Source: a virus. From it: a stretch of DNA of 64,000 nucleotides. The first letter of the stretch is position 1. Every line of letters begins with the position of its first letter. Where the stretch lies: the IMG/VR virus record IMGVR_UViG_3300027969_000001, positions 94,715-158,714 of that record; one strand, given 5' to 3'. Below the pieces are notes generated by a model. That model was not told the origin of the DNA. It was given only the letters and a program-made list of their open reading frames with translations, and did no database searches. The position numbers and the translations under genes were made by a program. Positions 2,610-31,400 of the stretch are shown piece by piece.

Positions 2610-4535
2610 ATGCCATTTATTGACGACGCTTTCGTTAATGCTTACGCAGTAAAGCAAGCCCCATGGGGCTTTAACGGTATGGGGGAGATTGTTTTTCTTC
2701 GTACATATAGTCGCAAGAAAGATAACGGGAACATTGAAACATGGCCTGAAACAATTCAGAGAGTAATCAATGGCGCTCTTGAAATAGGTGTTCCGTATAC
2801 GCAGGAACAAGCAGAAGAACTGTTTGACCATATGTTTAATTTACGTTGCTCCATGAGTGGTCGCGCGCTATGGCAACTCGGTACGCCAATGGTTTCTAAG
2901 TTTGGTGGAGCTTCACTCAATAACTGCTACTTCACTAATATTGAAAAAGTTGAAGACTTCGAACTTCTTTTCGACTACTTAATGCTTGGCGGTGGCGTTG
3001 GCTTTTCCGTTGAACGCTCCAAGATTCACGACTTGCCAAAAGTTAAGGGTGGCGTAGTCATTACTCAAGAACGTTCTAATGATGCTGACATCATTGTCCC
3101 AGATAGCCGTCAAGGGTGGCGTAGACTTTTGCACAGTGTTCTTAAGTCGTACTTCGATACGGGGAGAAGCTTTTCTTACTCAACAATCTTGATTCGCGAA
3201 TACGGCGCTCCACTTAAAGCTTTCGGTGGTACGGCAAGCGGTCCTGGTGCGCTGATTGACGGTATTGCTGATATTTGCAAAGTAATGGATAACCGTGTAG
3301 GAAAGAAGCTTAGGTCTGTAGATGTTTTGGATATTTGCAACATTATTGGTCGCATTGTTGTTTCCGGCTCGTCACGTCGGTCCGCGCAAATAGCAATGGG
3401 TGACCCTGATGATGTCCTTTTTCTTCGTGCAAAGAATTGGTCATCAGGAAGTGTTCCTGCATGGAGAGCAAACAGCAACAACTCGCTCTATGCGGATGGT
3501 TACGATGAACTGAGCACTGAACTGTGGAAGGGCTACGACGGTTCTGGAGAGCCTTACGGCTTGGTGAACAGAAAGCTCGCCCGTACCTATGGTCGCCTTG
3601 GCGAGCGCCGTGTCGATAATTCTATTGAGGGTTTTAATCCATGTGCAGAGATTGCTCTTGCTGACGGAGAGTCGTGCAACCTTGCAACAATATTCTTGCC
3701 CAATATTGAATCGTTGGCGCAGTTCTTGTCAATATCAAAACTTCTCTACATGGCACAGAAGCAGATAACGCGTCTTGCTTACCCATACGAGAAGACCACG
3801 AATATTGTGCGTCAGAATGCTCGTCTTGGACAGAGCGTAACTGGAGTTCTTCAGTCAACAGAAAAACAAGTTTCTTGGTTGTCTCAGGCATATGAACACC
3901 TTCGTCAGTTTGACGCTGAGTATTCAGCCGAGCACGGATTCCCGCAGTCCATCAGAATGACCACCGTACAGCCCTCTGGGACGCTCTCCCTGCTGCCTGG
4001 AGTAACGCCGGGCATACATCCGGCATTCGCCCCTTATTATGTCCGTAGAGTGCGTTTTGGCTCCAATGACCCGCTTATTGACGCCTGCCGCAAGCGTGGC
4101 TACAAGGTTCAGTGGGATATCGGTTTGGACGGTCGCGAAGACCACACCAGACAGGTCATCGACTTCCCATGCATGTCACCAGAAGGCTCAATTTTGGCCA
4201 AGGACATGACCGCAGTTGAACAGCTTGAATGGGTGAAAAAGATGCAGACAGATTGGGCAGACAATGCCGTATCTGTAACCGTCTATTACCGTAAGGAAGA
4301 GCTGGAAGAAATCAAGACATGGTTGTCAAAGAATTACGACAAGAGCGTTAAGTCAGTTTCATTCTTGCTTCACTCGGACCATAACTTCGTACTCCCTCCA
4401 TACGAGGAAATAACAAAAGAAGCGTACGAGAAGCTTGTAGCAAAGATTGACTTCACTATTCCTTTGGTTCAAAATAGTTTTGAAGGAACCGTAGACCTTG
4501 AAGATTGTGCAACTGGTGCTTGTCCGATAAAGTAG
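2610..4535 (+). CDS. nrdJ: class II (adenosylcobalamin-dependent) ribonucleotide reductase
   Basis: RTYSR N-terminus, SLNNCY, GGGVGFS, NPCAE...ESCNL active site, TTVQPSGT, C-terminal CATGACPIK redox pair; no beta-subunit gene adjacent. Confidence 0.92.
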   Translation: MPFIDDAFVNAYAVKQAPWGFNGMGEIVFLRTYSRKKDNGNIETWPETIQRVINGALEIGVPYTQEQAEELFDHMFNLRCSMSGRALWQLGTPMVSKFGGASLNNCYFTNIEKVEDFELLFDYLMLGGGVGFSVERSKIHDLPKVKGGVVITQERSNDADIIVPDSRQGWRRLLHSVLKSYFDTGRSFSYSTILIREYGAPLKAFGGTASGPGALIDGIADICKVMDNRVGKKLRSVDVLDICNIIGRIVVSGSSRRSAQIAMGDPDDVLFLRAKNWSSGSVPAWRANSNNSLYADGYDELSTELWKGYDGSGEPYGLVNRKLARTYGRLGERRVDNSIEGFNPCAEIALADGESCNLATIFLPNIESLAQFLSISKLLYMAQKQITRLAYPYEKTTNIVRQNARLGQSVTGVLQSTEKQVSWLSQAYEHLRQFDAEYSAEHGFPQSIRMTTVQPSGTLSLLPGVTPGIHPAFAPYYVRRVRFGSNDPLIDACRKRGYKVQWDIGLDGREDHTRQVIDFPCMSPEGSILAKDMTAVEQLEWVKKMQTDWADNAVSVTVYYRKEELEEIKTWLSKNYDKSVKSVSFLLHSDHNFVLPPYEEITKEAYEKLVAKIDFTIPLVQNSFEGTVDLEDCATGACPIK

Positions 4536-7358: not shown

Positions 7359-7762
7359 TTTGTTTCCTTCTTGAATTCGGTCCAAGTTTTATCGCCTATA
7401 CCAAAGTACTCGCGAGCATATCCTGATTGGATAATATCTTTATTTAAACAGGCCGTAGAAGGGTCTTCTATTTGGTCTGAAGAAAATATGCGGGCAAGAA
7501 TTCTTCCGTATTTATCATTCTTGTCTGGGATTGTGTTTACAAATACCCACTTGTGGTTTGTAAGCCAGTCTTCCGTGAAATGCTTAGCTTTGAGGCCCAT
7601 TTCTTTTTCTGCTAAATCTTTTGTTCGTGATTCAGGAGTATTAACTCCATAAAGACGAACACGTATTTTGTGATGAACGTTGAAACCAAGGTCAACCATT
7701 AACTCTATGGTGTCGCCGTCTATAACCTTAAGAAGGGTTGCTCCGTACCAGAAACGTTCCAT
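7355..7762 (-). CDS. thermonuclease (SNase family)
   Basis: VIDGDTI...RVRLYGVNTPES...DKYGRILA...GYAREY. Confidence 0.9.
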   Translation of the reverse strand: MERFWYGATLLKVIDGDTIELMVDLGFNVHHKIRVRLYGVNTPESRTKDLAEKEMGLKAKHFTEDWLTNHKWVFVNTIPDKNDKYGRILARIFSSDQIEDPSTACLNKDIIQSGYAREYFGIGDKTWTEFKKETK

Positions 7763-8775
7763 TACTTTGCTTTTCTCTTCTTTTTTATGTCTATCTGTAC
7801 TTGTTTTCTAGCCTTACCCATTCTAGTTTTAACTCCAGGCATCATGCGAATGTCTTCTACGGCAATTACTCCTGTTCTTGCTGTTTCTGCAAGTTTCTTT
7901 TTTATTTCTGCACGGCGCTTCAATAGTTCCGCGTCAACATTTTCAGTTTCATCGTCGTAGAGGTCTAGTGGTTCATCTGTTGCAATATTTTTAGCTGTAT
8001 TTTTTTCTGCAGCTACCGACTCTTCGGCGTATAGGTCCATATCGCTTGCGTCATCTATTCCGCGTAGGTCTGGGTCAATTGGTTTCTTTTTTGAAGTAAG
8101 AGCTTTTATTTCTTCATTAAAAGATAGTTCTTTTTTCTTTGTATTTGCATACTTCTCTAATAGTCTTTTGCCTTTTGCTGCAAGCGCAGCTGCATCTTCT
8201 GCGTTCTTTGGAACAGGCTCACCCCATGCAGCTGCCGAGAGGGCAAGTCTTGTTGCTCTACCTTTTTCGTCAATCATTGGACCTGATGGGTTGGTAAAAA
8301 ATCTTGTTAGGAACGAGCCTTTTCGACGCATTTTCTGTGGAGTATTGGCTGGCCCTTTTACTCCTGGCTTGAGGTTCGCGCCTTCTTTGTTTTTAAAGTA
8401 TTTTCTGCCGGCTGCGGTAAGCCCACCCTTCGGGTCGTGAAGTTGTTCAGCGCTTTTGCCTTCTACAGGGATGCAGTTAGGGACCATTTTCCCGCCCTTG
8501 CCTTTTTTCATCCCAAGCTGAACATATCCAGCCCAACATGGGTTGGCTGCTTTAAGCTCGAAAGAATTAACTACTGCCGAACCATAGAACTCATCAAAAA
8601 TTGGCATAAAGTCATCATGCTTTAACTCGACCATTGACTCTTCGACTATTTTGTTAAATTCAGTATCAGCGTCTATACGCTCAGATATGCGTAGAAGTTC
8701 ATCAAACATGTCTTCTTCTGTTGGGTTTAGCTCATTTTGCATACTCGTCCAGTCTTTCACACCCATCTGGGCCAA
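7762..8775 (-). CDS. putative head-associated protein, mosaic of short phage motifs
   Basis: PCWAGY..GMKKGKGGKMVPNCIP motif and DPKGGLTAAGRKYF...RRKGSFLTRF...RLALSAAAWG block (DUF6321-like by recall); TACAGT 6 nt before TTG start. Confidence 0.6.
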   Translation of the reverse strand: MAQMGVKDWTSMQNELNPTEEDMFDELLRISERIDADTEFNKIVEESMVELKHDDFMPIFDEFYGSAVVNSFELKAANPCWAGYVQLGMKKGKGGKMVPNCIPVEGKSAEQLHDPKGGLTAAGRKYFKNKEGANLKPGVKGPANTPQKMRRKGSFLTRFFTNPSGPMIDEKGRATRLALSAAAWGEPVPKNAEDAAALAAKGKRLLEKYANTKKKELSFNEEIKALTSKKKPIDPDLRGIDDASDMDLYAEESVAAEKNTAKNIATDEPLDLYDDETENVDAELLKRRAEIKKKLAETARTGVIAVEDIRMMPGVKTRMGKARKQVQIDIKKKRKAK

Positions 8776-9411: not shown

Positions 9412-10761
9412 TTAGGCTTCTGGAGCGCCGTCGAATGTTACTTTGACGAATGCTTCTGGGCGCTTGACTGCAAGTGCAAGACGCTGTTCAGCAAGAACAA
9501 CGATTGCGTTACGTACGAAGAAGTCGCTATGCTGTTCAGAAATTCTGATGCTAGCTTCTTCACGGTCGTACAATTGAGCACCAGTACCGAAGGCACCGAC
9601 GAGTGCGACTCCTTCTGCGATTGCTGGAGTGTCAACCAATGGCATGCGCCAAACTTTTGGCTCGCCGCCCATTGCAACTGAAACTGCGATGAGGTATTGG
9701 CCATTCTTGTCCTTGGTCAATTCGATATCTTCCCAGTCGTTCGGGTGAAGAACAACGCCGGAAGGCTCGTAGTATGCAAGGTACGACAAGGTAGCCGCAC
9801 GACGGATTGAGTCTGCCTTGGTGTCGGGCACTGGTAATGTTGCACCTTCTGACCATGAGTACTCCTGGATGTTTGGAGTCTGGAGAACACCGAGAAGGTT
9901 TTCGCCAGTTCCGTCACCGTTAAGGATTTGTGAATCCTCAAGAAGGCGGAGACCGTACATCAACTCGTTATCAATGATTGAACGAAGCTGTGGCTCGTCT
10001 GCAAGAACATTACGGTGCGCTGCTTCCCAGTGTGCGAGTGTACGCACTGGAGCTTGCTCACCAATGAAGTTGAATGACGACTGTGGCTTTGCTGCGAATG
10101 CTGAACCGTTACGCTCAGCTACTGCTGCCGCGTTATTTGTACCGCCACCGGTGAGGGTGGTGAAGCCAAGCTGGCGGAAGTATTCGATTACCTGTGCGTT
10201 TGTCTTGCGAACTGGGAACAAGTCACGAACACGCTTTGTACGCATTGGAGGGATAACGATTGAGTCACGCTGGATTGAACCGAAAACCGCATCTGCACCA
10301 CGGGCCATTGAGCCTGAAGGCATACCTGAGAAAACGTCTTTAACGTTGTACGAGGTAAGAGATGCTGAAATCTGCCAAGGAGCAGGCATGTTAGCGCCAT
10401 TACGGCCACCGTTCAGTGCCTTGAACTCAGCGGAATCGGTGAACATTTGACCAATGCTCTTGATTTCGCGTGAGGAAAGCTGATTGATGTCTGCAGACGA
10501 AGCTGCATATGCTGAACCAACAGAACCAGATGCTGGCTCTGAAGACCAGCTATCAACGTTGTCCATGGTCTGAAGGTCACCAAGGAGAGACTTAATCTCT
10601 TTGATGTCACGCATGTTCTTGTCGAACGCGCTCTTCTGCTCGGTTGAAACGATAACTGTACCGTCTTCAATTTTGAATGAATCTGCGATGGCTTTATTAT
10701 CTGCCATCTTTGTGCGAAGAGCTGATTGTAGCTCTTCTACGCGGGCTTTGTCTTGCGACAT
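9412..10761 (-). CDS. major capsid protein, HK97 fold, with N-terminal scaffolding (delta) domain
   Basis: Coiled-coil N-terminus; VRDLFPV, AVAE..AKPQS, L.SIIDNELMYGL..LED.QILNGDG, DFFVRNAIVVLAEQRLALAVKRPEAFV. Confidence 0.95.
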   Translation of the reverse strand: MSQDKARVEELQSALRTKMADNKAIADSFKIEDGTVIVSTEQKSAFDKNMRDIKEIKSLLGDLQTMDNVDSWSSEPASGSVGSAYAASSADINQLSSREIKSIGQMFTDSAEFKALNGGRNGANMPAPWQISASLTSYNVKDVFSGMPSGSMARGADAVFGSIQRDSIVIPPMRTKRVRDLFPVRKTNAQVIEYFRQLGFTTLTGGGTNNAAAVAERNGSAFAAKPQSSFNFIGEQAPVRTLAHWEAAHRNVLADEPQLRSIIDNELMYGLRLLEDSQILNGDGTGENLLGVLQTPNIQEYSWSEGATLPVPDTKADSIRRAATLSYLAYYEPSGVVLHPNDWEDIELTKDKNGQYLIAVSVAMGGEPKVWRMPLVDTPAIAEGVALVGAFGTGAQLYDREEASIRISEQHSDFFVRNAIVVLAEQRLALAVKRPEAFVKVTFDGAPEA

Positions 10762-10943: not shown

Positions 10944-11675
10944 TTACTGTTTCTTAATAGGCTTTTTCTTGAGGTTTTCGCGCATCACGGTACGTACAGC
11001 TGTCTCAATATTTCTCTGCTGCCTAACACCCATGTTATGTCGTCCAAGGTCTGTAGAGCCAGCCCTGTTTGCGTAGTCAGACATGTTGGTGCATGGCATC
11101 CAAACCGCACGACCTGTTTTCGATATTCGCCTACTCACGCCAATGCATCCCATTTCACGGGCTTTTTGACGTGCTGATTCGATATCCATAAAAACATTAG
11201 AGTCATTATCTCTGACGTATTCGGGACCGGCGGTCTTGCCTGATTTTTTAACGGAATCATTTGCTCTTGGCTTGTATCCATTTGTCATTGGGGGAACAAT
11301 CCCCCCACCAAAAGCGGTAACCGTATTGCCAAAAGTATCTAACGATTCCTTGACAGCTACAGAGTTGGTGCCACTAACTAGTCCACCACCGGGAAGGGTA
11401 TCTATGGCCAGAACTGGACGTTCACGCAGCCTTTCCCAACCGTCTTCTCTTCTTTTTTTACGTTTTGCAGTCATTCCATCTTTTTCGGCCCTTGGATTAG
11501 GAACAACAGAACGCCATTTCGACCCCTCTGCCATCGTGGAAATTCTGTCAAGTTCAGTTGGAGACGAACAGGGGTTCCACTTATTGTCTTTATCTAGATG
11601 AGCGCCGGAACAGCCGATGTCTTTTGCAAGTCTAAGGGCTTGCATCTTTGGCGTTATTGATTCAACGTTTTTCAT
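10944..11675 (-). CDS. protein with two DUF3721-like Cys motifs
   Basis: ALRLAKDIGCSGAH...WNPC and ARQKAREMGCIGVS...WMPC. Confidence 0.65.
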   Translation of the reverse strand: MKNVESITPKMQALRLAKDIGCSGAHLDKDNKWNPCSSPTELDRISTMAEGSKWRSVVPNPRAEKDGMTAKRKKRREDGWERLRERPVLAIDTLPGGGLVSGTNSVAVKESLDTFGNTVTAFGGGIVPPMTNGYKPRANDSVKKSGKTAGPEYVRDNDSNVFMDIESARQKAREMGCIGVSRRISKTGRAVWMPCTNMSDYANRAGSTDLGRHNMGVRQQRNIETAVRTVMRENLKKKPIKKQ

Positions 11676-15124: not shown

Positions 15125-15628
15125 TTATTTTTCCTCTATTTGTTTGAGAATTCTCATGGCAGTCCATGCTTTATTCTTGTCGCTTAATGTCTTGAATGAC
15201 AGATTTCCTATATCAGACTGTACCATCTCGCCACAACATGAATTGGATAGCTGCAAATTGCGTAATTGTTTATTAAGGAATGACTCAACTGCGTCAGATT
15301 TTGACTTAATATTTCTGGCGTTTCTGCCAAGTGATGTATATATTTTTATACCCTCAAGCATGGTTTTGTCTATGTCAATTGTTTTTGTTATAAACGTTTC
15401 ATACCATTTCCCACTAGTCACAGAATGAGGTGAATCCCATAGGGTTCTATGAAATCTTGAAGACCTCATTTTGGTTAAACCGGAAACCTTTGATGTAAAT
15501 GCAAAAAAATCTACACTTACGGTTCCTCCGTCTTGCTTCTCCACGACTCCATCATCACCGTCTGGGCCGGCATCAAGCACATAGAACAATTTGTCCCCAT
15601 GTATTGAGCCGACCAATACTGCCCTCAT
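15125..15628 (-). CDS. hypothetical protein (head module)
   Basis: 167-aa ORF coupled (ATGA) to the 2645-aa gene. Confidence 0.6.
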   Translation of the reverse strand: MRAVLVGSIHGDKLFYVLDAGPDGDDGVVEKQDGGTVSVDFFAFTSKVSGLTKMRSSRFHRTLWDSPHSVTSGKWYETFITKTIDIDKTMLEGIKIYTSLGRNARNIKSKSDAVESFLNKQLRNLQLSNSCCGEMVQSDIGNLSFKTLSDKNKAWTAMRILKQIEEK

Positions 15629-18600
15629 CGTGGCCTTCTTAGATTTGTTATAAGTTCTGGTTTCCCACCCTTACGCATTTCTTTTAAGGCTTTTTCAGCT
15701 TGTTCCTGTATGTCAAACATTATTTCGTTACGCAATATGGATTCCATATTTGCTGACGGTGAAACATTTTTTGCAATAATTCGTGGATTTTCTATATTGA
15801 TTCCATCTGGGTGGGCAATTCGTATATTATTAAAACCAAGTTTATTGAATTTATCTTTAACTCCTTGAGCTGCCCGATACTCCCGAAGCATTTGCATATT
15901 TTGTGAGTTCATTTTCCCGGCACCACCAAGAGAGTAAAAGTAATCTATTTCTTCTTGGGAAAATCCGCTTGCTCTTAACTTTTCAGAAATAGTTTTTGTA
16001 TTGACCACATCGGATATGTCTACATTGCTTGACATTTCTTTGATTTTTGAATACGGGTAGTTTATTTGCTCGACTTCATCTTTATCAAAGCCACCAAGAA
16101 TCTGTGCCTCAAATGGAACACGCTTCCTGTCCGCTGTATCGAGTTTTTTAACTGGAGCCATTTTGCCGTCATCAGATAGTCCTGCATTTACATGTGCAAA
16201 GTTTCCATCCATGCCGGCCCCCATTAAATGAAGTGTTGCATCCATATTATTGTTTTTGTTGTTCTTACCTTCTGCGTTTATTGTTGCGTCAAGAATGTCA
16301 TGCTTATTAATTGAGTTAAGTTTTACTGGTCTATGAGACGTATTCATTGCTTCTCCGCGCCCATAAGACGTACGGTTGGAAACGCCAGATTTAAGTACGA
16401 CCTCTATGTCTCCGAGGGAAGTAAGACCGTCCCCGACTATGTCTTTATCGCCTATTTCAAATATGGCGTCATTTGAAACGTTCCCCTTATTTGCGGCTGT
16501 TGCTCTGCGTATTTTTTCATCAACATGGGATTTGTGTACAAGATATCCAGAAACTGGCATTGTCTCGTTGGATACGTCTGGCGGTATACCAATTCTTGAA
16601 TAGTACTCACGAGATAGTTTTTCATTTGCCATTCCAACCGAAGCCCCTGAAGAAAACTTCGCTGCAATAGGACCAGACGTCCAACCCCGCTGTTTGTTTA
16701 TTCTTCCAAATTTTCCTGCAGTGCGTTGGCTTGTGGGTGATAGTTTTTCTGCGTCTTTAGAGACCGTGGCAACTCTCATAAACGCATCTGATGCATCCTT
16801 GTAGGCGTTGGCTATTTTTGTTTTTTCTTCAACAGACATTGTTCCTGGTTGAATGTTCTTAATAGTGGAAAGCATTTCAGATTCTGTTATTTCTCCACGC
16901 CTATGAAGGTCCCTGATTGCTATTTCTGCTAATTCTGGAGCAGAATGACGGGATATATCATTAGCGAGCTGGTCGAGCTCGTAATGATAGGTTTGAATAG
17001 CGGAACGATGTGATTCCCAGATAGCATCCCTTATGGGCCTGCGGTAAGAGCTATTTATATTTGATTTCTTTAATGCTGAATTGACTGCACCGTTAACTGC
17101 ACGTCTTTTACTTCTTCCAGAAAGGTCACCATTTTCGATGCGTACTGGCTGGGGTGAACTTTTCTTAGCATTCTTGTCTTTTTCCCATCCCTCTTGGAGC
17201 ATGGCTTGAACTATGGATTCGCGTTTTTTGCTGGCTTTTTTGACTGCATCCAATTCTCTTGTCAGCTGTTTATCAGCATTAAATGGTTCCCCATACATGT
17301 CTTCATAAGATTTTCCGCCCTCGTAAACTTCATAGGCATCATGTACCGCTTTTGCTTCAGGAGTACCATCAAGTCGACGAGCAACCTCTGCCCCAAATGT
17401 GTCGCCTTCATCCCAACCGGCAATGGGAGCCTTTCCTCTTCCTCTTCCAGTAAGAGCATCAGATAAACCACTTGATAATTTATTTATTTTTTCTTCTACG
17501 GTTTTGGGAGCGGAACCAAGACGTGCTTCTTCGATAACTGCAGCGTTGTATGCTGTCTCTCTTGCTGCAGACGCCTCGGAAAGTAGGCGACGGTCATACG
17601 CTATGCTCTGCCGTTCAGAAAGTCGCGCGGCATAATCTGGATTTCTTGATAGGCCAACTGAACCAAGTTTGATAAAACTGCCTCCGGCGTACATTTCATC
17701 CACAAGACCTGGAGCGTCTTTTTCTAGAACCTTAGCCTTAGAAACAATATCCTCATCACTTATTGAATCTATAGTTCCAACTTTCCATTTATCTTCAACT
17801 CCAAGTTTTGCAGCTTTTATGCCCCACTCACCTTGGAATACTTTTCCTAAAGTCAATCCTTCTACAATGTCCGTCTGAACTTCATTTACATTCAATGGGA
17901 GTTGCAGCTCTTTAGGTAGTGAACGATTGGCAACTATTATTGCAGCCCATCTGTGGTGACCATCAAGTATGTATTTGTCTTCTGTTGCAAGTATTGGGCT
18001 CATGAACCATAATTTGCTCATTGCTTCATCGTACGCTTTTTTAAATTCTGGGGTTCCCCTAACAAGACCAGAATCTTCTAATTTTTTTACTTGTTTAAAA
18101 ACATCTTTGGTAATATCTTCGTTAGTACTATCAACTTTTGAAGCAACAAGCTGCCTCTGGGAAGGCTGATACGTGGTTGGGTCTGCTGCTTTTGTTATTA
18201 CGCCATCCCTGCCATCTTCCGTCTTGATTTGTTCTTTCAGAAATTCTATAAATGGCATTTCAAGGTTTACTTCTACGTCTTGCCAATTTGTATTGTCATA
18301 TAACCATTGTTTTTCGTCTTCAGGTAATGCTAGGAAAGTGGCGCGATGTTCTGCTACTGTTTTTTTAGTGAGTTCGTTTTCGGTATTGTGTTTTTCACCA
18401 ATAGTTTTATAAACAAAAGCAGTTTGTTGTTGGGGAGTCATTGCAGATTTTCCATCAGCAATCAATTTTTGATTTTCTTTTTCTATTTCCGCCACATATC
18501 TTTGCTCTATTTCGATATTTTGCTTAACGGCATCACCTTTGTTGCCTAATGGGGCCCACTTCCCAGCAGCTTTGCCGTCTTTAAGCATTCTGATAGCCAC

Positions 18601-21600
18601 AGAGTCGTGTCCAGTAGTTCGACCATTCGTCTGCGGCATGTCTTCACGAGCTATACCTATGTGTCCAGAGCAAAGAAGGTTATTCTCTGGGTTATAAAGC
18701 ATACATAGGTCTGCCTGATGTTTTTCTTTGTATTGACGCTTTGCCTCGGCAATCATTTCAGGACTTTTTAAATCTTCGTCAGAGTTAATTTTTTCAAATT
18801 CTGATTTAAATTTAAGCCATTCGGGGTGTTCGTTTTCAATTTGATTGGCTGCTTCTTGCTTAACAAGTTCTTCAAATTGTTTTTGAGCTTGCTCAGTAAG
18901 TCTTACATCTTCATGTTTTACCATCACATGATGACCTGCCATCATTAGCGCAAGAGCGTCCTCGACTTTATCTACTTCATATAGGTGTGAAGATTTTTCA
19001 CTTACAGACTTTTGACCAGACCTTCTGACGGTTCCACCAAAAAACGATGACAGCTCTTCTTCGGACATGGTTTCAATATCTTTGCCATTATCGGCTATTT
19101 TTTTAAAAGTTTCCAAAGCAGATTCAGCAATAGCTTTTTCTTTTTTCCCTCTTTCGGCTACCTGTTCAGCGGAGTCGGAGACACCAGAACTGAGTCTCCC
19201 AGCTCTTGCTGCTGGGTCCATACCGGCAAGTCTTTCAACTCTTCTACTACCACTAGAAACCTGAGGACCTACGCTGGATGCCCGCATGGTGCCGTCGGCA
19301 AGGAACTTTTCTAGGTCAGGTTCACGCATTCTCACCCTGACTCTTCTGTCAAATCCGTTATGCATCTGAAAGGCAGCGGTTTCCAGGTCTGAAATTATTT
19401 GCTCGTGAGACTGGGTCGAAAGTTTTTTAACAACAGCACTATCAAGTGATGAAATAGATAGCGCTTCGTGCTCGCCTGAACCAGAACCGGATATCACCTT
19501 ACGAAGTTCTACCGAACGGTCTTTTATTCTTCCGTTTCTTTGTGTAGTTCTTGCTTCCCGGGTCATTGCTGGTCCGAATACGTCGGAGTGGCCAGAAGAA
19601 AGTTTTCTAGCAACTTCCGACGCAGGACGGCCTCCTCTTTCTGCTGAAGTTTTACTTATAGATTCTAAATATGTTGGAAGCTCTGTTGGGGCTTCGCCAA
19701 ATACTCCACCCTTATCGACTACGTCAGAAAGAACTGTCCTGCTTGTTTCTTTAACAGAATCCGCATCGTCAGAGCGTGAGCCAGGAAGAGGGGAATCGTG
19801 TCTGGTTACTGCGTAGTTGTCTGCAAAGGTTTTAAGCTTTCTTGAAGCACCTTTACGCCATGCAGCATCATCAGTGCCCGATGCTATCGATGTAGCCATC
19901 GAATCAAGGACTTCAACGGTTCCTTTTTGCTCGGCAATTTCTATGCGAATAGTTCCGTCAGCTTCTCTTCCAACAATTCTAATTTTTCCTGGAGGCATAA
20001 CGACAGTTTGGTCTCCACTATCTCCAATATTGGGAAATATTCCCCTGTCTTTTGCTTTAGCAACAATAACTACGCGCTGTTTTACTTTTCCTGTTTCTTC
20101 ATTTATCTTGGTAGCTTCATCAATAACAGTTTTTTTCTGACCTTTAGAAATCACTCGGCCACTTAATAGTCCGTCGTTTTCTATCTCCCTACCTATGGAA
20201 ACTCCCGTGAAAATAGTAGGGTCAAATTCCATTACTGTTTCTATATCTAGCTGCTCTCCAAGTGAGGAAACTTCCATTGCCTCAAGTGTGGGAACTAGTA
20301 TGTTTTTGATTTGGTCATCGAAAGAAGCTTCACTACTAGATTTATCATCTATTGGAAGTGCAAGACGTTTTAATCGAGCATTTTTTCTGTTTGCAGCCCT
20401 ACCTACGGATATTTGCTTAGATGGCTCTAGCGCACCAGCTAACCCATCAGTATCGAATGTGCCCATCTCTTTAACGGCATCAGATTGTTCTTTTGTTATT
20501 TTTCTACGGAGCCGTGCTCTTTGCTTTTTACCCATATCTCGAGCTTCGGTAGCTGATGCTACTTTCCGTGATGCTCGTGGCTTAGGCGAAAGTACAGTTT
20601 CAACTTTCCCATCAAGCTCCATCAGGATTTGCGCAGTGGTTCTCTTATCGCCGGCGTCTTTTATAGATTTTGCATACTGGTTTCTGAGAAGGTCAAGTTC
20701 CTCTGCTTTATCCATGAGGTCTTTGTCTAGTGCTGCAATATCGACAACAGTTAATTCACCATCTGGAACGGTTTCTACGTCGGCTGGAACATAGGAAGCA
20801 ATTGAATTTTCTATATCTTTAATCAGTAATGAATGGTCAGCTATCTTGCGAACTAATTCTTTTTCTGACATCGAAGAAGCAAGTCCCTTTAGGTCATCAA
20901 GAGCTGCGGCCCTAGAAGCGGCCTCTATCTCTTCTGGAGCATAAAGACCGTGAGCATCTCTAACTTCTTTTACTCTCTCTTCAAATCTAGCCAACTCAGT
21001 TTTTGAACCAACGCCATGTTCTTTTCGCCATATTTTTTTGGCGTCTTCATACATTTTGTCGTAAAATTCAAATTCTTTTTGTGCAGAATCAAAAGCGGGA
21101 GAAGTTATGTCATCTATAGAATCCATTTTTGCTGAAGCATTATCACGCTGTGCTGCAACTAGTGCTGCGTTGTTTATCATGTCTTCTTCTGGGAGCTCCT
21201 TAAAAGCTTCACTGAAAGACTTAAGGGCTGCGCGTCGTTCTTCTGAGGTTCTTTCTCCAACTGAAATCAACTCTTCCGCCATGTCTTCCGCGGGCATATC
21301 CGGAACAGCGTCTCCAGATACGTCTGGAATAAAATCTCCACCAGCATCACCGCTTGGAATAATTGAAGAAACTATGGCTCTATCTTCAGCTGCCGCCCTC
21401 ATGGAGACATTGTCCATCCATTCAAGTGCTGCATCAATATCTTCGCCGTAAATTATTCCCTGTTCACGAAGCGCCCAAAGCTCTGCGCATACTTCTAGGG
21501 CCCAGTGCTCTCCGCCTTTTCTGTACACATCCCCTGGGTAGCTACCAGCAAGAGCTGATACAACTTCAATTCTGCTTAATGCTCCATTAAGTGCTTCAAT

Positions 21601-23562
21601 GTTTATATCATCAGCAACATCTATCATGATGTTGGGCCAGTCGTAGCTCGTTATCTGAGTAAAATCAGTAACAGTTCTGTATCTCCCCGTAAACATTCCC
21701 GTTTTTTTGTCATATTCCGGAATGCGGATTGAACCACCAGCCATTAGTTCTGCTTCAATATGGTCCATAAATGCTTGGTACTGAAGTGTGTGAGAAATTT
21801 CGTGGAATATCTGCTGGCGCATGTACGATTTTTCGCCATCAATCAAACCGGCCATACCTCGTGCCGTGTGGTCGGCGTTGACGAGGAAATCTGCAACTGT
21901 TGCCCGTGCTTCAGCGTCAGTAGAGGCTCCAACTGCAGCTACCGAAAGTCTTTGATTTGGGCGCAACGATGGAAGTAGTGACTCTTGCCCAGACATGCTG
22001 TTGTGCATGTTTAGGGAGATTATGTATTTTCCACCTACGTACCTTGTACTCATTTCGTCAGTGCTCGAGTTGTCATACTCCATGACGTTTGTGCGGCGCA
22101 TCGTTGTTGGGGATTTTACATACTGGTCCAGAAGTCCCTCTAGGACTGCGCGCTCAGTGCTGTAGTACCTAGATACGTCTGCTTTTAAAACAATATCTTG
22201 TTCTTCTTTAGTTAAGTCTCTCCATCCTTTTACGGACTGTAGTCTTGCTTGGCAAAACTGCTCAACTTCAACCGGAGTAAGCATTGCTCCATCGGCTCCA
22301 CCACGCTGATGAACGAGCCTTATGTCCCAACCAAGAGAGGGGTCAGAAGCCGCTAAAGCGCGAAGCGCATCAAACCCCTGCTTAAGGTCTTCATTTGTTG
22401 CTCGTGCAGTTTCACTTCTATCAACGCCGAGAGAATCAAGTATCGATGAAACACGGGCATCTGTTTGTAACATTCTGTCCTGTGCTCTTATTGCGCCATT
22501 CTTAAACCATCTCTGGTTTTCTGGCATCTCAATACTTCGCCAGTCAGGCGTGTCTACGCGTTCTCCAGTTATGGAGTCGTACCAGACAGTTCTTCCGAGT
22601 TTTGCCAAATAAGAAGGGCTCGGTATTTCGCCAGGAACCCTGTCTGCCATTGGGTCGTATCTTTGGGAGCTCCAGTTGCCGTTAAATACCCCATCAAAGA
22701 AACGTTGAGCAGTGGTTCTGGTCCCCTGTAGTTTCCCGTCAGCGGTGGCTGTTTGCGCCATTCTTGCAGCAAATCTACCGAACTTAGACGGACTAAAGCC
22801 AAAACAGTTTGTCCCATACATGTCCGTAAACTGATTTGCGGCCGGCGTCCCTGGAGGGCATCTGAACTTATTTAGCTCGTCTTTTATTACTCCAAATGCG
22901 GCAGCCGCACGTGAAGCCAGGTTTCCCCCGGGAATACTGGAGCCTATTCTTTCCCCAGGAAGAATCTTTACTTCGGGGTCGAGCTTGTTTCCTGTTTCGC
23001 GACGCTTTTCTCCAACTGTTAATCCAGAAGTTATTGAGAACGGGTTGACTACTCGTCCAGACTCTGGGACAATATCGTCAGTACGTGGATTGACATCGTA
23101 TACGGTTAGTTCTACGGATGGTTTTTTTATTATCTGATTTAGTTCGTCTTGAAAAGAACTTGACTTTGGCTCTTTATCAGCAAGCCAGCCAAAGTTTGGT
23201 TTTTCTTCCAAGCCATGAATACTTGAGTATGAAGGAAAAAGTTGAAGGTGTTTTCCTTCTTCCCATGTCTCGTCTGGCATGAATCTTTCGCCAGTAGGAA
23301 GAGATTCCATCCCAGGAATTGACCCGCCGCGCATGTCGCGCTTTTTGCCATCAGTATTATCTTTGTCTACGCCTCCACCAAGAGGAGTTCCATCAAGTGC
23401 TTTGATAGATATATCTGCGTATAGACGCTCAGTAGCAGAACTTATTGCAATTGATTTTCTGAACGAGACAGCAGTCTTGTTTATGTCTTTACAGCAAGAC
23501 GTAGGCACTATTAAGCGCGCAGATAATATTACTCGTTCACGGACTATTGAATCACCCGTCAT
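15625..23562 (-). CDS. 2645-aa polyvalent protein: zincin metallopeptidase, degenerate VIP2-like ADP-ribosyltransferase, ParB/Srx domain, split DUF3626-like domain
   Basis: HEISH (21790-21804) plus EVCAE; ART-like segment ~19930-20500; ILDGHHRWAA (~17941-17970); MPVSGYL..GDIEVVLK..NRTSY..FEAQILGG. Confidence 0.7.
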   Translation of the reverse strand: MTGDSIVRERVILSARLIVPTSCCKDINKTAVSFRKSIAISSATERLYADISIKALDGTPLGGGVDKDNTDGKKRDMRGGSIPGMESLPTGERFMPDETWEEGKHLQLFPSYSSIHGLEEKPNFGWLADKEPKSSSFQDELNQIIKKPSVELTVYDVNPRTDDIVPESGRVVNPFSITSGLTVGEKRRETGNKLDPEVKILPGERIGSSIPGGNLASRAAAAFGVIKDELNKFRCPPGTPAANQFTDMYGTNCFGFSPSKFGRFAARMAQTATADGKLQGTRTTAQRFFDGVFNGNWSSQRYDPMADRVPGEIPSPSYLAKLGRTVWYDSITGERVDTPDWRSIEMPENQRWFKNGAIRAQDRMLQTDARVSSILDSLGVDRSETARATNEDLKQGFDALRALAASDPSLGWDIRLVHQRGGADGAMLTPVEVEQFCQARLQSVKGWRDLTKEEQDIVLKADVSRYYSTERAVLEGLLDQYVKSPTTMRRTNVMEYDNSSTDEMSTRYVGGKYIISLNMHNSMSGQESLLPSLRPNQRLSVAAVGASTDAEARATVADFLVNADHTARGMAGLIDGEKSYMRQQIFHEISHTLQYQAFMDHIEAELMAGGSIRIPEYDKKTGMFTGRYRTVTDFTQITSYDWPNIMIDVADDINIEALNGALSRIEVVSALAGSYPGDVYRKGGEHWALEVCAELWALREQGIIYGEDIDAALEWMDNVSMRAAAEDRAIVSSIIPSGDAGGDFIPDVSGDAVPDMPAEDMAEELISVGERTSEERRAALKSFSEAFKELPEEDMINNAALVAAQRDNASAKMDSIDDITSPAFDSAQKEFEFYDKMYEDAKKIWRKEHGVGSKTELARFEERVKEVRDAHGLYAPEEIEAASRAAALDDLKGLASSMSEKELVRKIADHSLLIKDIENSIASYVPADVETVPDGELTVVDIAALDKDLMDKAEELDLLRNQYAKSIKDAGDKRTTAQILMELDGKVETVLSPKPRASRKVASATEARDMGKKQRARLRRKITKEQSDAVKEMGTFDTDGLAGALEPSKQISVGRAANRKNARLKRLALPIDDKSSSEASFDDQIKNILVPTLEAMEVSSLGEQLDIETVMEFDPTIFTGVSIGREIENDGLLSGRVISKGQKKTVIDEATKINEETGKVKQRVVIVAKAKDRGIFPNIGDSGDQTVVMPPGKIRIVGREADGTIRIEIAEQKGTVEVLDSMATSIASGTDDAAWRKGASRKLKTFADNYAVTRHDSPLPGSRSDDADSVKETSRTVLSDVVDKGGVFGEAPTELPTYLESISKTSAERGGRPASEVARKLSSGHSDVFGPAMTREARTTQRNGRIKDRSVELRKVISGSGSGEHEALSISSLDSAVVKKLSTQSHEQIISDLETAAFQMHNGFDRRVRVRMREPDLEKFLADGTMRASSVGPQVSSGSRRVERLAGMDPAARAGRLSSGVSDSAEQVAERGKKEKAIAESALETFKKIADNGKDIETMSEEELSSFFGGTVRRSGQKSVSEKSSHLYEVDKVEDALALMMAGHHVMVKHEDVRLTEQAQKQFEELVKQEAANQIENEHPEWLKFKSEFEKINSDEDLKSPEMIAEAKRQYKEKHQADLCMLYNPENNLLCSGHIGIAREDMPQTNGRTTGHDSVAIRMLKDGKAAGKWAPLGNKGDAVKQNIEIEQRYVAEIEKENQKLIADGKSAMTPQQQTAFVYKTIGEKHNTENELTKKTVAEHRATFLALPEDEKQWLYDNTNWQDVEVNLEMPFIEFLKEQIKTEDGRDGVITKAADPTTYQPSQRQLVASKVDSTNEDITKDVFKQVKKLEDSGLVRGTPEFKKAYDEAMSKLWFMSPILATEDKYILDGHHRWAAIIVANRSLPKELQLPLNVNEVQTDIVEGLTLGKVFQGEWGIKAAKLGVEDKWKVGTIDSISDEDIVSKAKVLEKDAPGLVDEMYAGGSFIKLGSVGLSRNPDYAARLSERQSIAYDRRLLSEASAARETAYNAAVIEEARLGSAPKTVEEKINKLSSGLSDALTGRGRGKAPIAGWDEGDTFGAEVARRLDGTPEAKAVHDAYEVYEGGKSYEDMYGEPFNADKQLTRELDAVKKASKKRESIVQAMLQEGWEKDKNAKKSSPQPVRIENGDLSGRSKRRAVNGAVNSALKKSNINSSYRRPIRDAIWESHRSAIQTYHYELDQLANDISRHSAPELAEIAIRDLHRRGEITESEMLSTIKNIQPGTMSVEEKTKIANAYKDASDAFMRVATVSKDAEKLSPTSQRTAGKFGRINKQRGWTSGPIAAKFSSGASVGMANEKLSREYYSRIGIPPDVSNETMPVSGYLVHKSHVDEKIRRATAANKGNVSNDAIFEIGDKDIVGDGLTSLGDIEVVLKSGVSNRTSYGRGEAMNTSHRPVKLNSINKHDILDATINAEGKNNKNNNMDATLHLMGAGMDGNFAHVNAGLSDDGKMAPVKKLDTADRKRVPFEAQILGGFDKDEVEQINYPYSKIKEMSSNVDISDVVNTKTISEKLRASGFSQEEIDYFYSLGGAGKMNSQNMQMLREYRAAQGVKDKFNKLGFNNIRIAHPDGINIENPRIIAKNVSPSANMESILRNEIMFDIQEQAEKALKEMRKGGKPELITNLRRPR

Positions 23563-25403: not shown

Positions 25404-28400
25404 CTAAACAGCTGTTGAATCAGAAATTACTCTCGTTCCATTTTTGTTTTTACCGTAAAGAGTTTTTCCATCTTTTTCTATACGCTCTCGCGCTGTACGA
25501 AGTTGTTCCGCACTGAAAATGTCATCTATGGAATAATTTGTTCCAAAAACTTCATTGAATCTATTTACAACACCCTGAAGCTCATTTGTTGAATATCGAG
25601 GGCTGTCGCCCTTCTTCGGAGAAAAAACTGGACCACGTGTAGCAGCCAGTTTAGGCAGCTCAGTATGTATGTCTTTTTTACCGATTATTGAATGAACAGT
25701 CTCTCTATTGGCTTTTGACTTTTCCACGCCACTCTTTTGAATGAATTCATTTAGGGCTTCGTACACAGCATGCTTGGAACGACTCAGCTCGGAATCAAGC
25801 TGTTGACCAGCTTTCCCTTCCGTCCAAATAGAAGAAGCATCAGGTATTACTCCCTTGCGAATCATTTCATCGATATAAGCGACGGGAACGCCTTTCTTTT
25901 CCCATTCAGCAGCATCACGCCTACTTCCAAGACCAACATTCTGACTACCAAAACTTTCAGCAATCACTTGACGGAGTTTTTCGTGCCAGTTATCGTTTTT
26001 GCTAATACCGAGGTGCTCCAGAAGGGGCTCTATTTTGAAATCCTGTCTAGATGTCTTGTCGGTTGCTATCTGCTCAGCAGTGACTGTTCCTGATGGAGTT
26101 AAGGATGCCCCAGACATTCCTTCCAGCATTAAATTATGTTCTGCTTCCGAGTCGCCATCAGTAGCACTATTCTTCTGGAATCGGCCCATTGCCTGAAACT
26201 TGGCAACAGGACTAACTTCCCCAAGAGAAGCGTATTCATCTGGCGTTATTGATTGTTGTTCTTCTTGGTCAAACCAGTGAGGGAATGCGTCTTTACCAAA
26301 AGTCTCAACAATGAATCGGTCTCGCATGCTGGCTCGGCCTATATTCTCGGCAAATACTTCTTCAGCGTTCCACTTTTTCTGCTTTGCTTCCGCCGAATCT
26401 ACTGGGGCAAAAAGCCTCCATGCTCCGAATTCTTTTTGCTTGCCGGTTTCGGCCAACATGTACCTGACTGCGTCATGGTTAATAGCTGCGCCATCTTTTT
26501 CCAACAACGCAGCGTCTCTTCTGCCAAGACCAAGCATGCTTGCTAACTCGGCATTGGTGATTGGACGAGTCTGTGAATGGAAAGACTCAGACAGTGAACC
26601 ACTATCGGTATAATCCCTAGTCCACTCTGTCGGAACACGAATGGCATCCTTGAGCTTGGATACTGGGAGCATCCATGTCTCAGCTGAAGGCTCTTGATTG
26701 CCACCATTTTGAGATATGTTTCCAATCTTAATTGATGGGCGCTCGCGCATTCTTTCAGAAATAGCATTAAGCGCATTATTCAGTGCTTTTTGTTTCTGGG
26801 CAGGGTCTGTTGAGTCGGAGTCAATATCAAGTGCTATGCCATTATCTCTAAAGCCCTTCCATATGCTCATTGATGTTTTTGTGATTGCTCTATTAGTGCC
26901 ACTATTTTTTGTAACGCTAGAGAACCCAGCAAGCTCTATGGGGTGCGCTAAACGTCGGGTGTCGCCTTCTGCACCAGACATGTCCTCGCCGGCATTACCG
27001 ACCGTACGAATACGCCTGGAGAGACGTCCACCAGCATTTGATGAAGCTGCACCACTGCTTAGTTTGGCAACGCTTCCTGAATCGCTTTCAGGGAAGTCAT
27101 TAATCCAGTCTAGTGAACCAAGTTCAAGCTGTTCTTCTGCTCTTGTAACGGCAACATAAGAAAGTCGGAGTTCCTGCTCGTCAGGCATAATCCATGTTTT
27201 CTTCTCTTTGTCCCACTTTGGTTTTCTAAAGTCTGACCAAATTTTTACTCTTGGAGACTCAAGACCCTTAGAGGTATGTGCTGTTTGAATATGCACGTAG
27301 TCGTCGCGATTTTCTGGCAGTTTTTTCTTGTCGGTAATAATCTTGCTGAGTGCTTCACGCAAGTCTGCAACAGAGTTCTCTGCAAGCAGCTTATTAAGCA
27401 TGTTTAATCTGTTGTTATCCCCGTCCTCTATGGCTTTTTTGAATTCTTCCATAGTAGTAATTCCGTCAAGGTCTTGACTTGGAGGTGGAGGAGTCTTGAC
27501 TTCTTTGCCAAATTCGTTGATGTAGAAAGGGTTGCCTTTTGCTTTGTTTTCCATCCAGTCAATGTTTTGGATAAAATTTTCTAAGTCTTTCTTAAAGTTC
27601 TTACTTCCATATACAGCGCCGCCCTTGCTGAAAACATCCATAGTTGCCGCAATGGCTCCACCGTTTGCACGAGTAAGAATCATTGTTGGTTTATCTATAG
27701 TTGTAATTACTCCATCTACAGGATTACCTGACTTGTCTGCTTTCTTTCCGGTCATGCGTTCTTTTGCACCAAGAAGCGATAGGAACTGGTTTCCTACTCC
27801 AGCAATTACTTTTCCAAATCTATAAGAATCTGTAATTGGCATGTCATATACGGATTTTGCATCATCTAAAGTTTTTCCATCAGCCCCTCGCCAGGCGTTG
27901 ATGGCCTGATTGGTATCGCCAATGTAAATTTTTTGAATATCGCCAGAGTTTGCCAGCATCTTTGCAAACACAGGGTTCATATCCTGTGCCTCGTCAACCA
28001 TGGCTATATTGGCTCCGGCTATTTTCCCAATGTCTGGGTCGGTTAGTGCCCATATTTTTGTTAAATGAGCGTTGTTCGTTGGCAACATTCCCTTTTTGCC
28101 ATCACGTGCAGTATTAATGTCTTCCCACATTTTCTTGGCATATCCGACCAACTCGGGAAGTATTTTTTCATCTTTCACTGCTAATGAACCATTGAAGGCA
28201 CCGGTAAAGTGCTGAGGGCCAACTTCCTTATCATCACTGATTACGAAAGCATCAATTGCCTTCTGTACTCTCTTGTAAACATCTATGGCACTGAGTTCAT
28301 CTGCTTCAGAAACCATACCCTTTATACCGAGATATGCGGCTCTATCTTTGTAAGACTTGATTGGGTCTATCCAGTTGACAGCATCAGCCTCGTAGCTTTT

Positions 28401-31400
28401 ATCAGTCAAGTTTCTATTAATTGCCTTCATGGCATTGTAGGAAAGACTGTCCATAGTTCTAATCTGGAAGAAATCTGGAGAGATGCCTTCTTTGGCTATT
28501 CTCTTTGTTACGTCGTCTTTGGCGTTAACGTTAAATACTAAATAAGCAATTCTTGCTTCCGGTTCTGATTTCTGCAGTCTCTTAGCAAAGTTAATAACTG
28601 TTGTTGTTTTACCCGTTGCCGCTAAAGCTCTAACCTTTACGTCTGCTCCAGTCATCATTGCGTCTATAGCAACATCTTGTTCAGGGTTAGGTTTTCTGTT
28701 GGCAGGGAGGTCTGGGTAGTCGTATTTCTCAACGTCTTTTATGTCAATTATTTTTCTAGGTTTTCTAGAGAATGGAGCACTTGGTGTACTTGGCGCACCT
28801 GGGGCATTCGGGGTGGAAGGCTTGGATGGAGTAGCGTCACCATTTGGCCATACGGTTTTGCCGTTTTCAACGGTAGGCCAGCCATAAACCATGTTACGAA
28901 GCGTGTCCCACTGTGACTGACTAAGGACTCCATTTTTACTCTTATGCTGAGAAAGAACACTAGGTAAGAAACTTTCTTCAAAACCCTTTTTGGGAGTTTT
29001 TGCTGCGGCAGCTTCTATTAGTTTTTTCTGCTCTTCTGGATTTGGCATGTCTCCTGGTGGATTTTTGCCAGAAGACAGGCTTTGCGGAGCAGTTACTGTT
29101 GGTGTAAATGTTGATGCTTTAGGAGCTCCACCACCGTACGGATTCCAGTGTCCGTTTGGCCTTTGTTGTTCTGGTCCGAGTTTTGTTGGACCATTGGCAA
29201 TGCCGTCAATACCGGTGTTTCTGGCTGGGTCGAATATCCAATCGAGGCCTGGACCGGGGTCAAAACCTAATTTTGCACGAGTAAGTGCAACATACAGAAG
29301 ATGTGCTTCTTCTCTTGGCAACCTATTGTTAACCTCACCAGCATCTTTCTGTGCTTGAGTGAGTGCAATCCCCATGTCACGAGCATTGGACCTTCCCCAG
29401 TCATCACCCATCATGACGTAGTCGGCTTCAAGGCCTTTTACCCCGTGTCCGGTAATTACTTCAATATCAACGCCTTCAGTGTCGTTTACGTGGTCTGTGA
29501 GGTATCTTCCAAGTTCTGAAACAATAGAAGCACTTTCTTCTAGGGTGTCACCGGAGACAACCCACCCATCGCCAGGCGGGCGCTGCGCCTTCCCGTCTAA
29601 AGCAACACTCTTCTCATGGTAGGATATTTTCCCTTCCATTTTGTGGTCTTTAATCCATTTTTGAAGTGCAAGTCTGCTTGGCCCGAGCGCAGTAGCTTTT
29701 GTGGCTGAGCCGTTCGCGGCCGTGTATGACTTTACTCCGTCAACTCCGTTACCGGTTATGAGAATACTCTTCCCGTCCCATTTGCCTGATGCCGTAACGC
29801 CAGGACCAAGCCACGAACCAGAGTCGGTAAATAATGGTCTCCAGTAAACCCTATTAATATCTGCGTCACCATTAAGAGATGCTGGAATAATTATGTTTGG
29901 CTCAAGGCCGCCCATTATCCACGGGCCATTAGCACCAGCACCAGATTTCTTGGGATTGAGTGCTCCCTGTATTTTTACAGCTTCAATATCAATTTGTTCA
30001 AATGGGTCTATGTCTACCCTTTCTTGAACTGGAATAATTTTTCTCTTAGAATAGTCAAATTCACCTTTTACTGAGTCCCACATGCCCTCTAAGGCTTCTA
30101 CGTAATCCATGGCGCTCATGTTGGCTTGCATTATCGCCCCGGTTTGTGGGTCTCTATATGTAGCCCGTGTTCCGTCTGGGTTCATTTTAGGCAAATCAAG
30201 AAGCCTCATCAACGAGAGCGCGTCAGCATTAGCTTTACCGTCGATAGAAAGTATTCTCTTGACGTCTTGAATACTTGCAGCGTCCATCACTTTTCCACCA
30301 AGAAGCTTTGACTCCACTGGTCTTGCAAGTTTTTTGCCAGAGTTAATCCAATTCAGAACCTTCATTGCGGCAAGCATTTTAGAGTGTCTTTCCTCCGGCA
30401 TGCCAAGCGTCTTACCAAGTCGCGTGCTTATTTCTATACCTTGAGAAATCATTCCCGCATTGGTCCTGAATATAACCATGTTTTTGCCAGGACGGTCAAA
30501 TTTGTAGTCTCTAAGTATTTCTCCGTCAGCCTGAGCAGCAAGAGCCTGCATGGCATCGGTTAATAATTTGTCTCTATCTTTTTCATTAAGTGAGGGAAGC
30601 GCGGAAAGACTTACAATGTTTTCATCCAGACGATTGTTTCTTTTTTGTATGTCGACCCATCGAGCGTCGTACTTCTTGGCAAGTTTTTGAAATTTTTTAG
30701 TAAGTTCATCTTTGGATAGTCCAGCAATACTGAAGTCGGCTTCGACTACACCAGCAGCTCTACCAAACAATTGGTAATCGGAAGCTTCTGGGTCTACGCC
30801 ATCGTTTCTGTCCTCGATATTCAGCATGTTAAGAATCGAGTTACCTAAGTATGCTTGTAATCTTCCGTATCTAAAAGAGTCACGAAGGGTTAGTTCAAAT
30901 GTTGGTTTTACTTGAGCAAAAGTATCTGATGAACCTCTAAACCCAAAGATTGACTGACGTGGGTCACCAACCATCATTATGCTGACGCCTTTTTCGGCAT
31001 TGTCGGCAATTACTTGCTGAACTACCTGGTTAGTGTCTTGTGCCTCGTCGAACATGAACAGGCTCAACGGTTTGTCTTTTGTTCCAAACTGGCGGTACCA
31101 CGTTGCACCTGTCTTGTTGTGTGTAACAATGCCTGTCTTGCCTTTGACGGCTCTTGTTCCGGATGGGGTGGCTTTTGGAAAACCCTGCTGGTCCCTGCTG
31201 GCGTGACCAATCAAACCTGGGTCTGTTGATAGGTCAGGCTTGGTTAATGCCCACATTTTTACTTGATGGTCAAAAGTTGGAAGAACGTTTGAATTATCGT
31301 CCGTAATGTCTTTCCACATCTGTTCCAACTGCTTAACCCAAGCATCTGGAACAGGCTGGGTCCACACGCGGTCTACTACAGGACTTAGGGTGGTGCTGCC

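Follow-up and report, generated by a model that had tools for sequence, protein, structure and literature searches.

The stretch of DNA analysed here (the window; 64,000 nucleotides (nt), positions 94,715 to 158,714 of IMG/VR virus record IMGVR_UViG_3300027969_000001) is the terminal stretch of a phage record that is complete at 158.7 kb and has direct terminal repeats, and codes for a terminase, a portal protein, an HK97-type capsid protein and a tail sheath. Two giant minus-strand open reading frames (ORFs) fill the portal-capsid interval, one of 3369 amino acids (aa) and one of 2645 aa, P0001, which has the portal gene (35618-37681) on one side and the major capsid gene (9412-10761) on the other. 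An earlier reading of this DNA from its letters alone (the sequence-only reading) had proposed that P0001 contains a DUF3626-like domain split by an insert of about 870 aa. We find that P0001 carries an ADP-ribosyltransferase (ART)-like domain whose two halves are separated by 863-865 aa, as set out here in window coordinates:

15625-23562, minus strand: P0001, 2645 aa in a stop-free frame, a polyvalent-type giant ORF of the head module
19591-19605, minus strand: RKLSSG motif (aa 1320-1324) at the boundary ahead of the ART leader
19249-19590, minus strand: leader and N half of the ART-like domain (aa 1325-1438), ending in QVSSG
19276-19386, minus strand: core helix-strand-helix of the N half (aa 1393-1429), where the hidden Markov model (HMM) matches fall; predicted local distance difference test score (pLDDT) 83-95 in the single-chain (cis) model
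19183-19248, minus strand: basic linker of 22 aa (aa 1439-1460), ending in RLSSG; pLDDT below 50
17467-19182, minus strand: insert module 1 (aa 1461-2032), ending in KLSSG
17629-18219, minus strand: predicted ParB/sulfiredoxin (Srx)-fold core of module 1 (aa ~1782-1978), with a DGHHR motif at aa 1867
16645-17466, minus strand: insert module 2 (aa 2033-2306), helical, ending in KFSSG
15628-16644, minus strand: C half of the ART-like domain with a C-terminal helical subdomain (aa 2307-2645), covering profile positions 50-371 and superposing on SopF

The motifs quoted in the sequence-only reading are all present, but its numbering was off by one residue: the strand motif VRVRMREPD begins at aa 1408 (nt 19341), the last residue of QVSSG is aa 1438 (nt 19249), RLSSG lies at aa 1456, KLSSG at aa 2028 and FEAQILGG at aa 2484, and KFSSG begins at aa 2302, that is at nt 16659 and not 16656.

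One domain in two pieces

Pfam and PHROGs gave no useful match to P0001, whole or in eight pieces. A HMMER search with aa 2290-2645 found 143 homologous cluster representatives, and many of the distant homologues carry FHxGxDRRVRVxxPxxRLxxxLxDGRYKTTHE directly before the matched part, a sequence that resembles P0001 aa 1396-1430. An HMM of this N half, built from 22 contiguous forms, scores 29.6 bits at P0001 aa 1396-1425; among the giant split orthologues in the listed matches it recovers the element as well, far ahead of their C halves. A profile of the full domain (A1), made from 30 contiguous homologues and including no split form, matches P0001 in two complementary pieces: profile positions 4-64 fall at aa 1393-1450 (26.3 bits, independent E-value 4.9e-10 in a search of three giant proteins; the confident part is 4-38) and positions 50-371 at aa 2314-2635 (233 bits). 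This two-piece pattern is repeated in 24 further orthologues. The profile matches are well above chance and show true homology of both halves to one contiguous domain, and in this respect the proposed split by an insert of about 870 aa holds.

The two halves are also predicted to fold together, as the sequence-only reading had required of them. In a complex prediction that paired an N piece (aa 1380-1438, alignment A2) with a C piece (aa 2302-2645, alignment A3), with three runs and three controls, the interaction score from aligned errors (ipSAE) was 0.83 (median of three runs) versus 0.00 for the best control; the mark used for this score is reached by 58 of 80 solved complexes and by 2 of 110 mismatched pairs. 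The runs have at least 86% of contacts in common, with a partner pLDDT of at least 77, and in the predicted complex the N-half strand RVRVRM (aa ~1403-1414) contacts the C-half strands YLVHK and IEVVL and lies between them as an inner strand of the sheet. A partly independent check came from the cis model, an AlphaFold2 prediction of aa 1325-2520 as one chain from split orthologues only (alignment A4, 23 rows), which has a mean pLDDT of 75, rising to 83-95 across the leader and N half. Its best match in the PDB is SopF (7dn8; Z 9.9, root-mean-square deviation (rmsd) 4.4, 204 aligned), and the superposition runs over cis-model residues 8-1189, that is over both halves. Thus the halves match a single profile and form one compact fold in silico, and the cargo modules between them would therefore loop out on disordered linkers.

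SopF is also the closest structural match of the contiguous form. The AlphaFold2 model of a contiguous homologue (pLDDT 86.9, predicted template modelling score 0.84) has SopF 7dn8 as its best Foldseek match in the PDB (E 7e-5) and aligns with it by VIA at Z 10.9 and rmsd 4.1 Å over 208 residues; DarT (Z ~7), OspC3/CopC (~6), CteC (~4) and classical ADP-ribosylating toxins follow, and matches in BFVD include a Nodularia phage protein named as DUF3626 domain-containing, together with minor-capsid and ParB-fused proteins. SopF itself has DUF3626 at residues 178-338 (PMC6682159) and belongs to the ADP-ribosyltransferases, with an I-Y-E triad (PMC10333799). Sequence searches of the PDB gave, with the family profile, only spurious matches to DotG, which has a short LRxxGFSxxEI-like repeat, and none with the DUF3626 paralogue module described below.

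The family identity proposed in the sequence-only reading thus stands as to fold and not as to Pfam membership. The Pfam model PF12294 (DUF3626; gathering threshold 27 bits) does not match P0001 as a whole, nor in pieces at E up to 10, so P0001 should not, as judged by sequence, be filed as a PF12294 member. The only match in a six-frame search of the genome is a contiguous module (P0145, 34.5 bits) of a paralogue, a third giant ORF of 4250 aa at genome positions 79459-92211, just beyond the window. Two contiguous family members give sub-threshold PF12294 matches of 11-12 bits at the same profile positions, and A1 matches aa 3737-3856 of the paralogue, the PF12294 stretch, at 19.5 bits (independent E-value 5.8e-8), a value from a search space of three proteins that is supporting and not decisive. 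A word-indexed homologue search with the paralogue module returned a single match. The link of P0001 to DUF3626 is therefore through its fold and through a profile match, within the same genome, to a paralogue that is a true DUF3626 member, and the family is a distant DUF3626 relative with an ART fold that Pfam does not cover. We note that the 4250-aa ORF holds two contiguous copies from the superfamily of this domain (L001:1156-2403, minus strand, and genome 79459-92211), the one that passes the DUF3626 model (aa ~3737-3916) and one nearer to the P0001 family (aa ~470-740), in which the motif RPSSGY mimics an SSG boundary. As to active-site candidates, P0001 has the Glu of FEAQILGG, as do 33 of 42 members of the split clade, and the Arg of RT.Y is invariant.

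Cargo, boundary motifs and the history of the split

The first insert module was proposed in the sequence-only reading to be a ParB/Srx domain, and structural comparison is in agreement with this. Model residues 458-654 (aa 1782-1978) align by VIA with ParB 6t1f (Z 7.0, rmsd 2.3, 68 aligned), Noc (Z 6.8), sulfiredoxin (6.7; 96 aligned, 19-21% identity) and the N-domain of pNOB8 ParB (6.0). The Pfam ParB models do not match module 1, and the ESM Atlas gives weak leads to ParBc_2 (0.87) and ParB_N (0.86). The DGHHRW of the module is conserved in orthologues, and the structural matches and this motif together support a ParB/Srx fold for the core, with Z scores that are middling. The module is the commonest insert in the family; in relatives whose ART-like domain is contiguous it is placed before or after that domain. 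Module 2, which the sequence-only reading had described as of no known family, indeed has only non-specific helical matches and a weak ESM Atlas lead to LPD38 (0.77); it is common only to P0001 and its closest relative, P0002, with weak matches in P0030 and in L003, a contig of a related phage.

One way for such an insert to be lost from the mature protein is protein splicing without a recognisable intein, which the sequence-only reading had offered as an alternative and which we consider extremely improbable. The nested topology and Ser-rich junctions are what it would have in its favour, and nothing further. Against it, no Hint or intein Pfam family matches at E up to 10, the insert ends ...AAKFSSG and so lacks a terminal His-Asn, the same SSG motif bounds 20 or more modules that are not nested, and the cargo consists of ordinary polyvalent modules that are found outside the ART-like domain in relatives. 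Removal at the level of DNA or RNA also finds no trace: there are no Rfam families, RNA introns included, and neither direct nor inverted repeats of any significance flank the junctions. We also considered whether the 22-aa tail that follows the N half (RRxERLAxMxP..RLSSG) is a degenerate copy of profile positions 50-75 arising from duplication at the junction, and rejected this since hhalign gave 12 such tails a probability of 0.2% against the family. The linker consensus, RRxERLAxMxPxxRxxRLSSG, is conserved within the P0001 subclade.

That the insert is bounded by SSG motifs, as proposed, is borne out by their distribution. The three giant ORFs have 5, 5 and 11 copies of the motif [KR][LMF]SSG, and in addition one RPSSGY that is part of an ART motif; five copies are in the 3369-aa ORF, and there are two more in a 1629-aa ORF of the tail region (window 54696-59585). 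Together the copies are spread over window 16645-56432 and genome 79459-92211. Against shuffled sequences the three giant ORFs contain 17 [LF]SSG where 0.43 are expected, and 21 split orthologues contain 76 [LFM]SSG where 3.3 are expected, an enrichment of about 23-fold, whereas 53 long proteins with a contiguous ART-like domain, the sister clade included, contain 6 versus 5.5 expected. The motif stands at nearly every module boundary, and more than 20 of the modules that it bounds are not nested in any domain; most orthologues have one copy after the N half and another immediately before the C half. Its codons vary, so it is at the protein level that it is conserved, and all four SSG motifs within the cis-modelled region have a pLDDT below 50.

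The domain is contiguous in most relatives and is divided at a surface loop in the split forms, as the sequence-only reading had anticipated. Our census of the 143 representatives with A1 counts about 84 contiguous and about 25 split forms, the remainder being contig-truncated fragments or stand-alone C halves, and in the split forms the halves lie about 420-1370 aa apart. Both the contiguous forms and the variable cargo modules are thus seen that the sequence-only reading had proposed to look for, as orthologues lacking or swapping the insert. In a maximum-likelihood tree of the C half (a quick IQ-TREE run with a midpoint root only), all split forms, fragments and stand-alone C halves fall in one clade (Shimodaira-Hasegawa-like approximate likelihood ratio test 99), which is sister (97) to a small contiguous clade, with all remaining contiguous forms outside. 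One insertion event would suffice to explain this, and a single origin of the split is supported. The alignment rows indicate that the YKTTHE loop motif was already gone in the wider clade, its loss predating the insertion. Within the split clade is nested a subclade that has undergone gene fission, in which the C half is its own gene of 321-331 aa: in contig L003 (587-8392) a 2204-aa gene still contains the N half at aa 1544-1587 (29.2 bits), with RFSSG behind it, and after this gene come a low-complexity gene of 66 aa and a C-half gene of 331 aa, so that the C half lies two genes downstream of the 2204-aa gene. Contig L004 (2-2807), also from a related phage, has the same layout, and in both contigs the insert of the broken giant gene is without the ParB-like module.

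The stand-alone C-half genes of 321-331 aa, together with the relaxation in the split clade of the RPxSGY Arg and of the TTHE loop motif, might be taken to mean that the upstream N half is no longer part of the ART-like domain, being a relic or having a job of its own with the leader, and that the C half acts alone. We regard this as improbable. The split clade conserves the N half more strictly than the contiguous forms do (H12, D16, R20 and R22 are each found in 25 of 25 split forms versus 26-61 of 84 contiguous ones), and this pattern shows strong purifying selection on the separated N half, which is under a stronger constraint than its counterpart in contiguous relatives. The N half is moreover retained where the C half is a separate gene, its strand is predicted as an inner strand between two strands of the C half, and the cis model superposes on SopF over both halves.

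A polyvalent protein and its possible processing

The neighbours of P0001 give the setting in which its architecture may be read:

25404-35513, minus strand: 3369-aa ORF, directly after the portal gene
34989-35423, minus strand: Peptidase_S78 prohead protease domain (PF04586, 39.6 bits, cut-off 21) at the N terminus of the 3369-aa ORF

After Peptidase_S78, the 3369-aa ORF carries ArdC-N (PF08401), the zincin MPTase-PolyVal (PF18818) and two UvrD-type helicase regions, in that order, and the giant ORFs are therefore classed as polyvalent proteins. P0001 lies in a head and packaging context, with portal, terminase and capsid genes around it, combines ART-fold and ParB/Srx-fold modules with a conserved HExxH, and has a neighbour with PF18818 and PF08401; both giant ORFs fit the definition of polyvalent proteins given by Iyer et al. 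2017 (PMC5512222). The N-terminal 1324 aa of P0001 are conserved across about 20 giant orthologues and match no family. The HExxH is found there as HEISH at aa 587-591 (window 21790-21804, minus strand) and is kept at aa ~480-640 in nearly all giant homologues, split or contiguous, marking a possible zincin peptidase. We considered this domain as the source of SSG specificity and rejected it, as the domain is also present in relatives without the motif (the sister clade).

We think it probable that P0001 is a head-module polyvalent protein with a discontinuous SopF-like ART-fold domain, that its cargo is nested in a loop of this domain and that the SSG motifs are candidate sites of cleavage. 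The first helix-strand-helix (aa ~1380-1430) is encoded 865 residues ahead of the remainder of the domain (aa 2307-2645), and the ParB/Srx-like and helical modules occupy a loop that contiguous relatives keep short and flexible and that had presumably become permissive. The halves are predicted to fold together, with the N-half strand RVRVRM between two C-half strands. The [KR][LF]SSG motifs would be candidate protease sites, cut during head maturation by the neighbouring S78 protease or by a domain of zincin type. Once cut, the protein would set its cargo free and persist as an ART-like enzyme of two non-covalently associated chains; by analogy with Alt of bacteriophage T4, this enzyme might reach the host together with the ejected DNA and there modify a host target by means of nicotinamide adenine dinucleotide (NAD+).

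The cleavage step is plausible because of the position and specificity of the motif, the disorder of the linkers, the adjacent S78 protease, the reports on phage SPN3US and the natural two-gene form; as would be expected of a processed polyprotein, a recurrent motif lies in disordered linkers while S78 and zincin domains are encoded nearby. It is possible, although doubtful, that loop cargo and SSG motifs make up one device, in which the enzyme would be encumbered by about 860 residues until maturation cuts every SSG linker, the nicked two-chain ART would be ejected and the effectors freed, with the fission subclade assembling its enzyme in trans. A more conservative reading is that the nested architecture is real and nothing is cut, the SSG motif being a hinge or linker or a docking signature and the cargo being permanently looped out. 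It is common among proteins at large for a discontinuous domain to keep its insert uncleaved. In addition, the virion RNA polymerase of phage N4 and other polyvalent proteins are packaged unprocessed (PMC5512222), and two of the SSG motifs lie in the 1629-aa ORF of the tail region, a product that a head protease would not meet. We nevertheless judge this reading rather unlikely: the motif is a strict five-residue one with variable codons that stands at nearly every module boundary in disordered linkers, its enrichment in this clade only exceeds what linkers need, in L003 a module boundary has become a gene boundary, and a prohead protease forms part of the neighbouring giant protein.

Some observations weigh against the reading that we favor. 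The A2 and A3 alignments include contiguous homologues, with their rows in matching order, and a structure of a related fold already exists, so the pass of the complex shows compatibility with the ancestral fold and not measured binding; it may owe more to likeness to that fold than to any binding between the two pieces. The evidence from the cis model consists of the two end points of the alignment and its length, and not of a contact map. P0001 has no Pfam match at all. The Arg of RPxSGY, present in 80 of 84 contiguous forms, is found in 17 of 42 members of the split clade and is Met in P0001, and the YKTTHE loop motif is lost in the split clade; because of these two changes catalysis may be altered or lost there. 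Lastly, the co-occurrence of SSG motifs and the split is a single evolutionary event, which cannot show cause.

Known systems and the wider head module

Each ingredient of this arrangement is already known singly: polyvalent proteins, phage ARTs, domain insertion and processing by prohead proteases. What is new is their combination, that is a swappable multi-domain insert in an ART fold at a position conserved across a clade, strict co-distribution with the SSG motif, a two-gene form and a SopF-like family that Pfam does not cover. SopF of Salmonella (PDB 7DN8/7DN9), the DUF3626 archetype, comes first in the structural comparisons with the contiguous homologue and with the P0001 cis model alike, at about 10% identity and with no Pfam or PDB sequence match on the side of the P0001 family. 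SopF is a contiguous type III effector that acts on the eukaryotic vacuolar ATPase (PMC10333799), whereas P0001 is split and belongs to a phage head module, and the phage family has an additional helical subdomain at its C terminus.

The polyvalent proteins surveyed by Iyer et al. (PMC5512222) are, like P0001, giant multi-module proteins of the head-packaging region with ART, ParB-like and zincin modules, and both delivery with the DNA and proteolytic processing have been proposed for them (PMC5512222). The survey describes modules in series, and the word 'inserted' is absent from its text, whereas the modules of P0001 are nested in a loop of another; P0001 differs also in its clade-specific [KR][LF]SSG boundaries and in that its ART family is not ART-PolyVal. 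In SPN3US a prohead protease is reported to cleave proteins during head assembly, and many proteins are reported to be packaged with the genome and ejected (PMC5694885, PMC10052503). The abstracts on phiKZ/SPN3US-like phages do not describe cargo nested inside an enzyme domain, and the protease family of those phages may differ from the S78 of the present one (PMC5694885, PMC10052503).

Polyvalent proteins are usually read as beads on a string, and in P0001 one bead appears to thread another: an enzyme fold tolerates, and conserves clade-wide, about 420-1370 aa of swappable cargo in one loop, and even tolerates being encoded by two genes. The arrangement offers a testable case of a capsid-delivered effector that may be matured or timed by proteolysis. 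The Alt protein of bacteriophage T4 is an ART carried in the head, which the prohead protease processes and which modifies host proteins after injection (PMC5512222). Its working model is the same as that proposed here for P0001, to which we liken it by description only; Alt is a single contiguous ART, whereas the ART-like domain of P0001 is split. The pair of halves may be a naturally fragment-complementing ART-like fold that could be studied as a split enzyme, and the family adds about 140 cluster representatives of SopF-like proteins without Pfam coverage; the N half, where it is separated, would never be assigned by domain scanners. If [KR][LF]SSG is indeed a protease site, it would amount to a readable processing code for this phage lineage.

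This lineage is an uncultured one with no close deposited relative. Among GenBank phages there is no DNA match to the P0001 ORF and no tblastn match to its C half, and the terminase has at most 45% identity to that of any deposited phage (Methanothermobacter psiM100 and Gordonia phages). Three further features of the head module are worth recording. The capsid protein (ORF 9412-10761) has QLSSR, which is SSG-like without the Gly, at aa ~90-105 (window 10440-10500, minus strand), in its N-terminal delta-like part. A DUF6321 ORF lies at window 7762-8775 (minus strand, 99.9 bits), and a DUF3721 ORF at window 10944-11675 (minus strand, 31.7 bits), whose position downstream of the giant gene is kept in L004.

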